A stretch of DNA of 64,000 nucleotides from a virus. Lineage: Duplodnaviria > Heunggongvirae > Uroviricota > Caudoviricetes. Under the pieces are notes generated by a model. That model saw nothing but the letters and a program-made list of their open reading frames with translations, had not been told where the DNA came from and did no database searches. A program made the translations under genes and the position numbers. The stretch lies in the IMG/VR virus record IMGVR_UViG_3300029702_000002; one strand, given 5' to 3'. This document shows positions 45,908 to 50,005 of the stretch, one piece after another; positions within the stretch are counted from its first letter, which is position 1, and every line of letters begins with the position of its first letter.

Positions 45908-45940
45908 AATGATTCCATACATAGTAGGTATGGAATCATT
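45908..45940. repeat. perfect 13-bp inverted repeat AATGATTCCATAC / GTATGGAATCATT, 7-bp spacer
   Basis: Read directly; half-site recurs at 48975-48990 and 49988-50003. Confidence 0.8.
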
Positions 45941-46059
45941 GTGGGCATTTTTTATAAAATCTGTGATTCTTCTCAGGATAAATTATCTAAACTAAAAATT
46001 GTGTTTTGTGTTGGCATCTGCTTGAATAGACGCATGTTTATTCAGATATGGAATAATCA

Positions 46060-46596
46060 GTGAACAACCAAATTCATTGGGACTACCCATTCTCAGAAGA
46101 ATTCGGCAGTGGGATGGTACACAGACAATTCACTGTGGGAAGCACTATTTATGCCGTTGGGTTTGAACAAATATTGACGATGGATGATTTCACACGTAAG
46201 GGAGTTGATATCCTAAATGTACATCCAACATTCCGGTTTCCTCTGAGTGGTGTATGGGGAGTGATTTTTGACGAAATTGACCCTGTAGAAATGGATTTCA
46301 AAGGATTTCGGCATATCCAACATCAAGGCTTGGCAGGTGGTCAAGTGCTTTTGAATGTTGCAAGTATAATCTTTGACCATTATACTGTTTGTAACGCAGG
46401 AGCTTATGTCTTCTCCGCCGCAGTCGACCATCAGCATTTACGCAGAACTGACTTGGTAGACATTTACTGTAAGATACTGGGTCTAAATGGAAAACGTAAA
46501 AGTAGATTGTTCGCCAATGGTTTTCCTGGATGGGAGGCATACTGTGATGTACCAACAGGAGGAAGAGGCTATGTCGTCACGACTGAAAGTTATTAA
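46060..46596 (+). CDS. hypothetical protein (GTG start, no clear RBS)
   Basis: ORF track only. Confidence 0.3.
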   Translation: MNNQIHWDYPFSEEFGSGMVHRQFTVGSTIYAVGFEQILTMDDFTRKGVDILNVHPTFRFPLSGVWGVIFDEIDPVEMDFKGFRHIQHQGLAGGQVLLNVASIIFDHYTVCNAGAYVFSAAVDHQHLRRTDLVDIYCKILGLNGKRKSRLFANGFPGWEAYCDVPTGGRGYVVTTESY

Positions 46597-46798
46597 TTAT
46601 TACCCCACCTCTGCAGAACGTTTGAGCCTTGAAATGGGCGAAAGACTACAGAAAGCTGCTGGTCAGGATTTAAAGAACAAGTTGGGTTCAGGGGAAATTA
46701 AACTGATTAACGGTAAATATGTAGGTGAAAGCCTGAAAGTTAATAGCACCTCTATGCTAAAAGCGCGGTTGCGTAAAGCGTATATCCCCGCTAAATGA
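46571..46798 (+). CDS. hypothetical small protein (start at internal ATG with GGAGG RBS)
   Basis: ORF 46487..46798 trimmed to ATG at 46571 preceded by GGAGG. Confidence 0.4.
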   Translation: MSSRLKVINYYPTSAERLSLEMGERLQKAAGQDLKNKLGSGEIKLINGKYVGESLKVNSTSMLKARLRKAYIPAK

Positions 46799-46802
46799 AA
46801 AG

Positions 46803-46830
46803 GCCTATATGGGCCTTTTCATTTTTATAG
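46803..46830. terminator. putative bidirectional terminator between convergent genes
   Basis: GAAAAGGCC ... GGCCTTTTC hairpin flanked by A/T runs. Confidence 0.5.
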
Positions 46831-47070
46831 TGTACTCACCAGCGCCGCAAATTCCGTATACCCCCCAATATGCTCTCCATGTATGAATATCTGAGGTATG
46901 GTATCCACTGGTTTACCAACCAGGTTGCTCAACGTTTCTTTGTTGATCCCCGCAGATGTAATATCTATATACTCATAATCACCGTAGCCATGTCCCTTTA
47001 GTTGCTTCGCCAGCTCGACCGCACGTTTGCAGTATGAGCAGTTATCTCGTCCGTAGATAGTGATCGTCAT
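46825..47070 (-). CDS. glutaredoxin / NrdH-like redoxin
   Basis: IYGRDNCSYCKRA CxxC motif; 81 aa. Confidence 0.8.
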   Translation of the reverse strand: MTITIYGRDNCSYCKRAVELAKQLKGHGYGDYEYIDITSAGINKETLSNLVGKPVDTIPQIFIHGEHIGGYTEFAALVSTL

Positions 47071-47243
47071 AACTTAACAAATACCTTTATAAATATTGAT
47101 TCGAACATATCAGACTATACTACAAACAGATTTTTTTGATAAGTATGTAGTAACTTATTGATTGACTAGTAAACAATTGAAGTGATTACGACAATAGATT
47201 ACAGTAAGGATTGCCTTGAAATGTACATTTTATAGAGGTTTTA

Positions 47244-48152
47244 ATGATTGGTAAGTTGTCTGATTCTTTGATTGAAAATAAATACAACGAATTTAGAGAA
47301 GAAATATCTTTACTTTTTGACTATTTAAATCAGATAAATGATACAACAAAGAAAAATATAAAACGTCTTCTTAAAGAAGTGGAGTATGCACAAAATCCAG
47401 ATACTATTATTAATATTAATGAAACTATTAAGATTAAGTGTGGCACAACGTTAGCTCGCCATTTATGTTCAAACCCATATACAGGTTCAACATTAGAGAT
47501 AGGTAACAGCGCCATTGATTTAGAAGAAAAGATAAGATTGTGTAATACTTTGAAAAATAAACAATATCAGTGGGTTATTACTGAAGCCTATGAGTTACTG
47601 GAAGACTATATTGAGGCAATATATGTCTATACTGTATGTGTTCGAAATGATTTATGGTCCTCAAGTGATTTTGGTAAGGTTGAAGATGATGAAATTGGGA
47701 AAAGGGAAGTTTATTACAGATTATTAAAAGCAAAAAGTAACCCATCGAAAAAAATAACTAAAATTTTCAGAAATAAAATACCTGGCTTCAAAGAGATAGA
47801 AACAAACAACAAGATTGGCAAAAACTATCGCTTTAACATCAAGCTAATTGAACTACTAAGACATACAATAGTACACAATAGTGGACGATTCAATGATACA
47901 GAAAAATTTATAAATAAGGTTTTAGATGAATCTGAAATAAACGGTAAGAAAAGAGTTATTGGAGAAAGAGCTGTTAGAAGTTACATTACTAAAGTGCAAG
48001 AAGATGATATTGTGATGCTCTTAGAAAGACCATCTGAAATTTTAGGTTCTTTTGGTGGGTATTTTAACAGAGCAAAATTTTTACTAAGTGATATTTTAGA
48101 ATACTCACTAATCATTAAAGAAGAACTAAAATCATATCTAGGCAATCATTAA
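47244..48152 (+). CDS. HEPN-like (Abi-type) protein, candidate abortive-infection factor
   Basis: R-x4-H motif in LLRHTIVHNSG; AT-rich gene with AGAGG RBS and own terminator. Confidence 0.5.
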   Translation: MIGKLSDSLIENKYNEFREEISLLFDYLNQINDTTKKNIKRLLKEVEYAQNPDTIININETIKIKCGTTLARHLCSNPYTGSTLEIGNSAIDLEEKIRLCNTLKNKQYQWVITEAYELLEDYIEAIYVYTVCVRNDLWSSSDFGKVEDDEIGKREVYYRLLKAKSNPSKKITKIFRNKIPGFKEIETNNKIGKNYRFNIKLIELLRHTIVHNSGRFNDTEKFINKVLDESEINGKKRVIGERAVRSYITKVQEDDIVMLLERPSEILGSFGGYFNRAKFLLSDILEYSLIIKEELKSYLGNH

Positions 48153-48157
48153 CAAAA

Positions 48158-48185
48158 AAGGGGCCGAAGCCCCTTTGGATTTTGC
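48158..48185 (+). terminator. rho-independent terminator
   Basis: AAGGGGC-CGAA-GCCCCTT hairpin followed by TGGATTTT. Confidence 0.65.
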
Positions 48186-48330
48186 GCTTAAAAAAGTGTT
48201 GCTAGGATGTTAGCAAGCTATGGTTAAGAACGTCTGCCGTAATTGTCTATCACAGCGTTGAGCTGTCTGGTTTATGTTAGCGGAGTCTTAATCGAGTTGA
48301 TTAAAAGGCCAAACCGCTCAACGCTGTGTC

Positions 48331-48417
48331 TGGCGGAGAGTAATGGAATCGAACCATCATCGCTTGCGCAATGGGACGGTTTTCAAGACCGCTTGAGCAC
48401 CATGCTCCCTACTCTCC
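48331..48417 (-). tRNA. tRNA-Ser (anticodon UGA), class II with long variable arm
   Basis: Manual fold: acceptor GGAGAGT/ACTCTCC, anticodon loop CUUGAAA, long variable arm, T-loop TTCGATT, encoded CCA. Confidence 0.75.
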
Positions 48418-48630
48418 AATTGTTGTGGTGCCGGGTGCTTCCCGGTGTCCTTTGGCTGGTTATCCACCGTGGACGGAGCCAATAGTCATCACAAAGGATC
48501 AATATAACCATTTCCCCGCGTGCGCTTAGCCGCATTCACCACAACGAAAAGAGCACTGTATGACGTTTGCACGGACTTACGCTTCAAACAGGGCAGTCTC
48601 GGCGGTTCTCAATGCTCTTTCCTGTTGTGT

Positions 48631-48706
48631 TGGTGCCGGTTAACGGATTCGAACCGCTGACATCCTGCTTACAAGGCAGGTGCTCTACCAACTGAGCTAA
48701 ACCGGC
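48631..48706 (-). tRNA. tRNA-Thr (anticodon UGU)
   Basis: Manual fold: acceptor GCCGGTT/AACCGGC, D-arm GCTC-AGTTGGT-AGAGC, anticodon loop CTTGTAA, T-loop TTCGAAT, CCA. Confidence 0.8.
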
Positions 48707-48708
48707 AT

Positions 48709-48783
48709 TGGCGATGGTGGGTGGATTCGAACCACCGACCAGTTGGTTAACAGCCAACTGCTCTACCGCTGAGCTACACCATC
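48709..48783 (-). tRNA. tRNA-Asn (anticodon GUU)
   Basis: Manual fold: acceptor GATGGTG/CACCATC, anticodon loop CTGTTAA, T-arm GGTGG-TTCGAAT-CCACC, CCA. Confidence 0.8.
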
Positions 48784-49562
48784 AATTCGGCACTGCCAGT
48801 ATTTATTACTCAACAGTGCCAATCGCGACGGTTTAGTTTCTGCCAGGAAACGCACCGCTACTTGCACTTTTCGTTAGTGCCAGACGCTTTCGACTTCGCT
48901 CAATAGTAGAAGGCAAAATCTTTAAGTAGATGATGTTTCTGAGGACTGCACCTACTTTGTAATTTATACAATGTGATGTATGGAATCATTTGTTGTGAAA
49001 ACAGGCACCAATGGCAACAGTGGTTAAACCTACACAACTATCCTGTCTTCACAACGTTGAGGCCACTACTCCGATTGAATGTTTGCCCAACATGTTACAT
49101 ATCAACGCTCGCCGGTATCTCTGTGAATAGAACCTTAGAATTGATAAAAATGTAATGGCCTCAACGTTGTGTGCTGGCTAACCATACCAGCCGGGCTACG
49201 TCGCCGCTTTTTAACCCAGTATAAACGACATAATTGAACAAAATGACGTAACAGGATGGGCGGTCATTGGCTAAGAATCCGGGAGTCGTATATGAGTTGA
49301 AAATATACTGACCGCCCATCCTGTTACTTCATCGGAGGGAACATTCATGTTCCCTCCTGCGTTCTGCAATCACACTCGCTCAGTGTGTCCCATTTCGGTA
49401 ACGAGGCTGGAAACTGACCTCGCTGGTGTTTGGCTTATTAGGCTACTGCCAGATAGACTTCTTCGTTTGCACTTGTATTTAAGTTCAAACAGTCGCGTCT
49501 CAACGAAAACAAAGTCATCTTATACATAAAAGATAAGTAAGTAAATACTTATCATTGTGTTT

Positions 49563-49853
49563 TTATTCGGTTGCGACTTTTTTGATCAAGGCCACTCTAC
49601 GACTAGGTGTTCTTGTGATGGTGGCAGTGAATCGTTTCGCTTGGATAGTAATGGTTTCGTTCTCCTTAAGTTGCCCGTAGCGAGTTTCCACCAGGGTGCC
49701 AAGACGCCACAGACCATCATCGATACGTTTATGACTAGCAAATTTAATCAGCAACAGTTTTACGACTAACTGACCTACGTAAAAGGCGAATGCGACTCCG
49801 GCCGCTAAGAAATAGGTGGCCAACCACCAGTCCCAAGAAGTTAAATTGCTCAT
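49563..49853 (-). CDS. membrane protein (96 aa)
   Basis: N-terminal hydrophobic helix; coupled to upstream small gene. Confidence 0.45.
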   Translation of the reverse strand: MSNLTSWDWWLATYFLAAGVAFAFYVGQLVVKLLLIKFASHKRIDDGLWRLGTLVETRYGQLKENETITIQAKRFTATITRTPSRRVALIKKVATE

Positions 49854-50005
49854 TTTCTAACCTTTGTTTCATGAACTACCCGATACACACGCTTTCCGAT
49901 GCACAGTGTTTTGGTTTTAAGTTCCTGCTTAATTAAATCACGACAGATGCCGAAGCCGATAAGGAAGCCACCCATAAAAGCTAATGAGATGTATGGAATC
50001 ATATT
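49853..50005 (-). CDS. small membrane protein (~50 aa, below ORF-track cutoff)
   Basis: Manual translation MIPYISLAFMGGFLIGFGICRDL...; start 2 nt after stop of 49999..50214. Confidence 0.35.

Follow-up and report, generated by a model that had tools for sequence, protein, structure and literature searches.

In a 64,000-nucleotide stretch of viral DNA, referred to as the window throughout, a 33-bp palindrome that we name P lies upstream of int, a gene for a tyrosine recombinase (Int), and three isolated copies of a single palindrome arm, named D, T1, and T2, are found in its surroundings. With a probability of roughly 70%, and judging from sequence comparison, we take P to be the core site of the adjacent Int, and D, T1, and T2 to be extra Int-binding sites of the clade of phage-plasmids around phage SSU5. 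According to this proposal, one Int monomer would bind each 13-bp arm, and two P sites would synapse for a strand exchange across the 7-bp spacer, as in Cre/loxP or Xer/dif. The main job of this reaction would probably be the resolution of plasmid multimers, because the element lives only as a plasmid. As a by-product, P could recombine with the P of co-resident relatives, and a hotspot of cargo exchange with P as its constant left breakpoint would result. Selection within the SSU5 clade would maintain D, T1, and T2 for regulating, or architecturally organizing, the cluster of replication genes.

P is composed of the left arm AATGATTCCATAC (45908–45920), the asymmetric spacer ATAGTAG (45921–45927), and the right arm GTATGGAATCATT (45928–45940), and it precedes the int start codon by 99 bp. 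The sequence thereby confirms the perfect 13-bp inverted repeat that the original prediction, made on the window without database searches, had placed upstream of the integrase gene at 45908–45940. Further half-sites had been assigned to 48975–48990 and 49988–50003: Both copies exist, while the exact 15-mer GATGTATGGAATCAT ends one base earlier in each of them (48975–48989 and 49988–50002, both on the plus strand). The last one indeed falls on the start codon of a small open reading frame (ORF), as its sequence is the reverse complement of the codons for MIPYI. The list of copies was incomplete, however, since a third exact 15-mer on the minus strand of dnaE (39878–39892) had been overlooked. 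The 12-mer core GTATGGAATCAT occurs five times in the window compared to 0.02 expected occurrences, and none of 100 shuffles reached five; a match at 16647 with three mismatches is at chance level. The complete 108-kb genome of the related phage Cyrano contains the same five copies alone, all of them at most 10 kb away from int.

The protein encoded next to P has the hallmarks of the tyrosine recombinase superfamily: PF00589 matches with 40.6 bits at a cut-off of 27.1 (E = 2.9e-10), and PF22022 matches more weakly. R185, R284, and Y316 do not vary among 43 homologues, at least 90% of which also conserve K211 and H307; the catalytic roles of these five residues are presumed from our reading of the motifs ARRPDE, RDLRRT, and NHSLEGIDRVY. 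An AlphaFold2 model with a predicted local distance difference test score (pLDDT) of 86 suggests that Int has a two-domain C-clamp fold consisting of a core-binding and a catalytic domain. In a Foldseek search, this model best matched lambda Int 75–356 on core DNA (TMt 0.76, E = 1.9e-6), followed by Tn1549 Int, XerH, and IntI, and MrpR and SroF were found at ranks 33–35. The arm-binding domain PF13356 is absent from Int and present in its next relatives (at most 34% identity), and the NCBIfam model PRK09692 aligns only from model position 137. Int derives from the P4/lambda-type integrase lineage and differs from the integrases of this type in two features: It has no arm-binding domain, and distinct arm-type sites are missing, as the dispersed copies match the core arms and not a second motif. 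A phmmer search with Int yielded no PDB match at E ≤ 0.01, and Foldseek aligned it to Cre with E = 0.04–0.09 at 10% identity. Because a sequence-level match to any solved recombinase is missing, Int is not a Cre-family protein, and its spacer of 7 bp likewise departs from the 13-8-13 site of the Cre-type family.

P and int go together far beyond the window. A pattern search for the two arms around any 7-bp spacer returned 80 viral contigs from IMG/VR, of which 79 carry int, and in all 79 P is located upstream of the gene, at a distance of 96–100 bp or, in a clade with a 59% identical Int, of 44–45 bp. Loci found independently through the CobT-like protein show the identical arrangement, and the pair of int and palindrome recurs in about 130 related loci and, beyond these, in about 45 further species of Enterobacterales, where it is carried by plasmids. 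With the Int alignment as query, one genome per species was searched; the resulting 50 loci span Yersinia pestis (where plasmid pMT1 also carries int), Kluyvera, Buttiauxella, Chimaeribacter, Pantoea, Rahnella, Erwinia, Xenorhabdus, Photorhabdus, Morganella, and Hafnia; nearly all of them feature a 13-7-13 palindrome 45–250 bp upstream of int. The majority of these 50 loci reside on large non-phage plasmids without SSU5 genes and without the XRE-type helix-turn-helix (HTH) gene that neighbors int in the window, and megaplasmids of Pantoea, Rahnella, and Erwinia carry Int and P without HTH gene or SSU5 backbone.

Moreover, the arms change together with the enzyme. Class I arms (AATGATTCCATAC) accompany Int proteins of at least 57% identity, whereas class II arms (TGTGACTCCAGAC) accompany those of 45–52% identity; the two classes differ in 4 of 13 positions, which are changed in both arms, and the 13-7-13 layout is retained. 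Loci L134 and L135, whose Int is 48% identical, illustrate this by the same geometry with a different sequence, TGTGACTCCAGAC-GTAATTA-GTCTGGAGTCACA. In every lineage examined, we thus found what characterizes a simple palindromic core site, namely inverted arms around an asymmetric spacer of 6–8 bp beside a recombinase gene, together with a co-variation of arm and recombinase. Because the arms are matched to the class of the enzyme and because many loci lack SSU5 genes or the HTH gene, Int and P form a self-contained module in which the site co-varies with the recombinase. As a side observation, the class II palindrome (TGTGACTCCAGAC-7-GTCTGGAGTCACA) occurs with the same recombinase family on contigs or plasmids of 250–900 kb from Pantoea, Rahnella, Erwinia, and Biostraticola (L142–L190), on which the int-distal flank varies between close relatives, for example L155, L161, and L162.

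We then searched 5,426 complete E. coli genomes with the segment comprising int and P. It is present in 252 genomes at 255 places, all 255 of which are on plasmids and none on a chromosome, with an intact palindrome in each copy; the dnaE gene of the plasmid is present in 243 E. coli genomes. From these numbers it follows that int is essentially universal in these elements and does not serve stable chromosomal integration. Most of the E. coli matches stop at query position 1235, which corresponds to window position 45940 and hence to the last base of the right arm, and homology with four annotated relatives breaks at the same base. Int genes that are nearly identical to each other have at least six unrelated flanks to the right of P, which we call cargo families. 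Two comparisons show the discontinuity from either side: Between loci L032 and L035, identity amounts to 76% on the int side and rises to 93.8% from the first base past the arm, and L032 agrees with L018 to 99.9% left of P and shares no homology with it to the right. The far end of the shared cargo block falls inside the conserved grxA gene, which points to cargo exchange by two crossovers, one of them always at P and the other a product of ordinary homologous recombination. That natural homology breaks exactly at P lends indirect support to the predicted arm binding and strand exchange. The original prediction had the copies of the motif roughly bracket the accessory/tRNA segment; this holds on the left, where P is the exact edge of the cargo, but not on the right, where the copies are embedded in conserved backbone past the tRNAs and coincide with no breakpoints. 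The spacer, with the consensus TTAWTAG, always stays with the int side and occurs in both orientations relative to int, and its orientation differs even between L045 and PhiR41_1, which share both flanks. Such flips fit sites at which only the identity of the partner site matters, and spacer orientation is irrelevant to intramolecular resolution.

Further observations were made in the vicinity of P. The first cargo gene of Cyrano, CYRAN_43, is expressed 723-fold over the local background in lysogens (PMC9928086), which points to a strong promoter immediately right of P that is directed outward, and a loose TTTTTT..AAAT(T)CTG pattern recurs in the right flanks of the different cargo families. 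A degenerate arm, CTAGGCAATCATT, is located at 48138–48150 on the plus strand at the 3′ end of a 302-aa ORF; it agrees with the arm in 10 of 13 positions, with the outer 7 nt being exact, and directly precedes position 48153, where the homology to Cyrano and L132 resumes. This single case at a module boundary could be a relic junction or a product of chance, for which we estimate about 0.005 per boundary. The locus L132 itself has a truncated int, which we set aside as an unrelated insertion or deletion that is uninformative. No switch of GC skew was detected at P, and we therefore rejected a replication origin or terminus at this position.

The conservation pattern of the single arms shows that they are kept by selection acting on the DNA itself. 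Each of them consists of GAT followed by the 13-nt arm or by the first 12 nt of the arm. They are retained in lineages from E. coli, Klebsiella, Salmonella, Enterobacter, Kluyvera, Buttiauxella, and Y. pestis despite diverged flanks, and conservation is limited to the 15–16 nt of each copy; outside the SSU5 clade, to which they are confined, none was found on the class I plasmids. In 42 unique class I sequences, the third positions of TGT, GAA, and TCA within D are invariant, compared to 129 of 137 other third positions that vary in the first 147 dnaE codons (Fisher p = 3.7e-4). D sits in a locally variable loop of DnaE, and the residue preceding its motif is either Arg (AGA) or Gly (GGA), so that the bases GA are always retained. 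The DnaE of class II elements has another peptide at this place, and more distant DnaE proteins are devoid of the segment. Similarly, in 25 unique sequences extracted by homology, T2 (ATGATTCCATACATC) has one position conserved to at least 90% and is otherwise invariant, and its flanks are variable. As translation of the motif gives MIPYI in a 50-aa ORF, CMES in dnaE, and DVWN in int of a sister clade, the constraint lies on the nucleic acid and not on the peptide.

The copy in int deserves a separate description. In the clade with an approximately 85% identical Int (for example L019, at −716 from P, as well as L119, L142, and L143), the int gene contains GATGTATGGAATCAA, which agrees with the motif in 14 of 15 positions and encodes DVWNQ. 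It is found on the minus strand, like D, and its codons GTA, AAT, and CAA are invariant while neighboring codons vary; the int gene of the window has GGGGTTTGGAATCAA at this position.

Because the single arms are identical to the recombinase arm and under selection, the simplest reading is that Int binds them, and because a single arm cannot support complete recombination, this binding would have a regulatory or architectural role. The arrangement is polar: D always occupies the minus strand and lies left of P, while T1 and T2 always occupy the plus strand and lie right of it. Every single arm thus agrees in polarity with the arm of P on the corresponding side. In the window, D and T2 share 19 identical nt in inverted orientation, an extent that is not kept in other clades. 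Shufflon- or invertase-like behavior was not observed, as gene order and site orientation are identical in the approximately 130 loci and an inversion between D and T1 or T2 is absent from them.

Several points weigh against the proposed explanation. Rearrangements with a junction at D, T1, or T2 were not seen in the approximately 130 loci. The GAT of the single arms stands in place of TAG, TAT, or TAA in P, and since it has no counterpart there, the single arms may have an additional or a different reader. In class II SSU5-like elements (L134, L157, L178, and L180), P is present and the dispersed arms are absent, which argues that the single arms are not needed for the basic system: No copy of the 11-mer arm core with at most one mismatch was found within ±10 kb, and a scan for repeated 12-mers gave chance pairs and a few low-complexity triples only, with no comparable dispersed motif. 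SSU5 itself is without int and P, yet retains D, T1 (with one mismatch), and T2; as its deletion junction is shared by 0 of 585 PLSDB plasmids, the deletion is probably recent and says little. Exchanged cargo adjoins different spacers, ATAGTAG and TTAATAG, which is awkward for a canonical complete strand exchange and makes short-homology recombination at the arm a possible source of the breakpoint. Finally, the motif is absent from the literature searched, and literature searches on the integrases of pMT1/pHCM2 and SSU5 yielded nothing on a site.

Regarding SSU5 (L010), the junction at 14527–14690 shows that the entire block of orf70, HTH gene, int, P, and cargo is absent, with the cobT-like gene being placed directly before tRNA-Asn. 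The type phage SSU5 may have arisen by deletion, with some of the functions for lysogeny and maintenance being lost. An origin of this deletion by Int itself was considered and rejected, as the junction is without arm remnant.

A farther-reaching proposal, toward which we remain rather skeptical, is that a catalytically competent Int, besides resolving multimers at P, is at the same time a sequence-specific regulator or an architectural protein at the three mirror-placed arms within the lytic replication genes, where it would couple the plasmid or lysogenic state to the control of these genes or form a polar barrier or a loop with the resolution site at its center. If this were true, Int would stand midway between true recombinases and repressors that, like MrpR and SroF, derive from recombinases, and one of its sites would be written into the dnaE frame at the cost of fixed codons.

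Among the other explanations is the operator of a repressor; the original prediction had considered a regulator binding site. Here, P would be a two-half-site operator of the 128-aa XRE-type protein, and D, T1, and T2 would be single operators of lytic replication genes. The HTH gene is a homologue of CYRAN_45 (“putative repressor”) and belongs to the same conserved module, its expression in E. coli LF82 lysogens is about 10-fold over background (PMC9928086), the dispersed copies are restricted to SSU5-like backbones, all carrying the HTH gene, and SSU5, which is without HTH gene and int, was propagated as a lytic phage. However, P adjoins int on about 40 non-SSU5 plasmids without a nearby HTH homologue and co-varies with Int in its arms, and class II SSU5-like elements possess the HTH gene but no dispersed motif. 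Invariant half-sites of 13–16 bp with centers 20 bp apart suit a recombinase clamp better than a single XRE helix-turn-helix, and D and T2 lie inside transcription units, with no sigma-70-like promoter overlapping any copy. As an account of P, the operator therefore fails, and for the single arms it is weak, so that we consider it improbable as a whole. What stands of the original prediction is the kind of element, a binding site for a protein; the evidence indicates the adjacent tyrosine recombinase and a recombination core site in place of an operator. Two related candidates were also discarded: a global repressor operator like that of P1 C1, given the mere five and clustered copies in the whole Cyrano genome, and sigma-70 promoters at the copies, of which none were found.

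The breakpoint at P could alternatively reflect an integron-like capture, in which circular cargo is inserted at P beside an outward promoter and the plus-strand arms represent old distal junctions. The abrupt start of the cargo right after the arm, the at least six cargo families beside near-identical int genes, the 723-fold expression of the first cargo gene of Cyrano in lysogens (PMC9928086), and the orientation of T1 and T2, which is the one expected for distal junctions, are in line with such a process. It is at odds with the far cargo end in the conserved grxA, which points to ordinary homologous recombination, and with the degenerate plus-strand arms in the cargo, which at up to three mismatches show neither an excess nor an orientation bias (10 on the plus and 13 on the minus strand). 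An attC-like site bounding each cassette is likewise missing, as arm-like sites at module ends do not exceed chance. Moreover, T1 and T2 are located in conserved backbone and D in an essential ORF, where they are subject to purifying selection and not to decay. Capture is thus a poor explanation of the pattern in its entirety, although it may occur as an additional activity.

An explanation at the RNA level, which we regard as very improbable, takes P for a hairpin or terminator and the single copies for antisense partners, with the dnaE mRNA being complementary over 15–19 nt to the start of the 50-aa ORF. P does resemble a terminator with 15 pairs followed by GGGCATTTTT and folds strongly (z = −6.7), and the 19-nt inverted identity of D and T2 in the window would provide the complementarity. 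But the T-run begins only 7–9 nt past the stem, the spacer has a constant length of 7 while its orientation flips, and it is the arm sequence, beyond mere pairing, that is invariant across Int proteins of 57–100% identity and changes only with the Int clade. In addition, the identity of D and T2 is lost in other clades, RNAalifold showed no covariation of the T1 pairing (term +1.39), and no Rfam family matched at any of the sites.

Still somewhat less credible is the notion that P is an attP for the chromosomal integration of the phage-plasmid, which the annotation of the gene as integrase and its distant kinship to P4-type integrases might suggest: None of the 255 places is chromosomal, as integration between hybrid att sites would require, every palindrome is intact, Int is without PF13356, and the same module resides on non-phage megaplasmids. 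The original prediction had also offered that the copies are remnants of duplicated 5′ gene ends of a small-protein family, a proposal that has practically no chance although the complement ATG ATT CCA TAC ATC is a genuine start at T2, as the alignment of the flanks of all copies that was suggested along with it revealed them to be unrelated, conservation is confined to 15–16 nt, the reading of the motif differs in frame or strand among three genes (MIPYI at T2, CMES in dnaE, DVWN in the sister-clade int), the ORFs at other copies are short and unconserved (MIPYIS-stop at D, 29 aa at T1, MIPYIQ-stop in other clades), and class II arms contain no ATG.

Megablast searches with the region 43800–50300 identified SSU5-like phage-plasmids as best matches, with Escherichia phage CMS-2020a and Cyrano (pLF82) being the closest records at 97–98% identity in the shared parts, and the E. 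coli plasmid NZ_JCANNN010000002.1 is 100% identical across int and the palindrome. These matches indicate that the window belongs to an SSU5-like phage-plasmid of E. coli. The minus-strand genes dnaE, cobS-like, cobT-like, and a 70-aa ORF are followed by the plus-strand XRE-type HTH gene and by int on the minus strand; orf70, HTH gene, int, and P constitute a conserved module of SSU5-like elements. Beyond int, the order continues with the variable block, tRNA-Ser, tRNA-Thr, tRNA-Asn, a non-coding stretch of 780 bp, three small ORFs, and a ligase gene (Table 1). The cargo begins at the base directly after the right arm of P and has a GC content of 0.36–0.38 (45941–48152). Apart from GrxA and the 302-aa ORF, which matches phrog_35492, a family without assigned function, its genes have no family match, and a defense-system scan with PADLOC gave zero matches for them. 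The 50-aa ORF belongs to a translationally overlapping row of ligase, orf71, orf50, and orf96 and has an AGGAG Shine–Dalgarno sequence ahead of its start; it is annotated in Cyrano, SSU5, and pJN2-26 and unannotated in the matching RefSeq plasmid record (L192).

Table 1. Position of the proposed recombination site, the single arms, and the surrounding genes in the window.
Feature	Position	Strand	Basis
dnaE, phage-plasmid DNA polymerase III alpha subunit, carries site D	36624..40142	−	gene call and annotation
D, single arm GATGTATGGAATCATT in dnaE codons 84–89, (R/G)CMESL	39877..39892	−	motif search
128-aa XRE-type HTH protein, convergent with int	44325..44711	+	part of the orf70-HTH-int-P module
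int, 367-aa tyrosine recombinase	44706..45809	−	profile matches and structure model
P, 33-bp site, 13-7-13	45908..45940	.	13-bp inverted arms, 7-bp asymmetric spacer
Variable low-GC cargo block with 178-aa ORF, 75-aa ORF, grxA, and 302-aa ORF	45941..48330		
T1, single arm GATGTATGGAATCATT in conserved non-coding DNA, 190 bp from tRNA-Asn	48975..48990	+	motif search
50-aa ORF (MIPYISLAFMGGFLIGFGIC...), hydrophobic N-terminus	49850..50002	−	phrog_6302, E = 8e-37
T2, single arm GATGTATGGAATCAT, complement forms the first five codons (MIPYI) of the 50-aa ORF	49988..50002	+	

The DNA around the tRNA genes has peculiarities of its own. An Rfam scan detected the tRNAs and a single sub-threshold match resembling STnc100, and none at the motif sites; the STnc100 match (48395–48563, minus strand) is placed between tRNA-Ser and tRNA-Thr and scores 44.1 bits compared to a gathering score of 47 (E = 3e-7). 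In Cyrano, the spacer between these two tRNA genes is missing and the three tRNA genes are adjacent. The 780-bp non-coding region from tRNA-Asn to orf96 (48784–49562) is conserved across clades and contains several strong inverted repeats: GTTGTGAAAACAGG/CCTGTCTTCACAAC at 48993–49055, a conserved hairpin that abuts T1, CACAACGTTGAGGCCA at 49050/49160, and a 17-bp stem at 49247–49327. The region may harbor an origin, processing signals, or an RNA. Outside it, at 48251/48317, two inverted copies of CACAGCGTTGAGC, a related motif, are found.

The combination of Int and P would assign a role to the “integrase” of essentially every SSU5-type phage-plasmid and of many Enterobacterales megaplasmids. 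Papers on SSU5-like phage-plasmids name tyrosine recombinases only as persistent genes (PMC9928086, PMC7969092), and, going by its sequence features, Int/P appears to be a simple pair of tyrosine recombinase and site that is not previously described in the literature searched. It implies that the accessory and moron region of SSU5-type elements starts at one precise nucleotide, and it predicts recombinational barriers at P between lineages whose spacers differ (for example ATAGTAG, TTAATAG, and CTTACAA). With a compact recombinase, a 33-bp site, a 7-bp spacer, and a sequence unrelated to Cre, the pair might also be of use as an orthogonal tool for genome engineering. The single arms, in turn, are a clear case of a coding sequence that is constrained by an overlapping DNA signal, and they offer a testable route to the question of whether an active recombinase also regulates.

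Comparison with known systems places Int/P next to Cre/loxP, FLP/FRT, Dre/rox, and Vika/vox, in which a recombinase gene likewise neighbors a short palindrome of two 13-bp arms around an asymmetric spacer. The resemblance to Cre/loxP of P1 extends to the lifestyle of the phage, which also lives as a plasmid, and to a recombinase without arm-binding domain. In P1, Cre serves multimer resolution, and a likeness of Int in this regard is to be expected; conserved single-arm copies of loxP are not known elsewhere in P1. The role of Cre is restated in PMC7969092. In contrast, the loxP spacer measures 8 bp and that of P 7 bp, and Int is no Cre homologue by sequence. As published searches for Cre-type systems demanded both Cre homology and 8-bp spacers (PMC10250229), they would miss Int/P. 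XerCD/dif with KOPS and Ter provides the precedent for a resolution site that is flanked by polar elements which switch their orientation at the site; here, however, the elements number only three and have the sequence of the recombinase arm, a partner resembling FtsK or Tus was not identified, and P shows no switch of GC skew.

The dispersed copies find their closest parallels elsewhere. MrpR has the recombinase fold and represses SPbeta through binding at ten scattered copies of a 15-bp element (PMC10516654). Like MrpR (YopR) and SroF, the recombinase-fold master repressors of SPbeta-like phages, the system described here has a motif of about 15 bp that is distributed as single copies over a phage genome, namely as D, T1, T2, and the int-internal copy matching in 14 of 15 positions in the clade with 85% identical Int. 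While MrpR has lost its recombinase activity and binds promoters, Int keeps the catalytic residues and a full palindromic core site, its dispersed copies do not overlap with promoter-like sequences, and instead of ten sites there are three, two of them inside coding sequence. TnpI of Tn4430 and Tn5401 is a further tyrosine recombinase for which the motif of the core inverted repeats recurs in additional copies. Most of these are no more than about 100 bp away from the core, and in Tn5401 extra sites for regulatory binding are found in the transposon ends, kilobases from the resolution site. Compared to these accessory repeats, the copies around P are 3–6 kb away, mirror-oriented, and extended by GAT.

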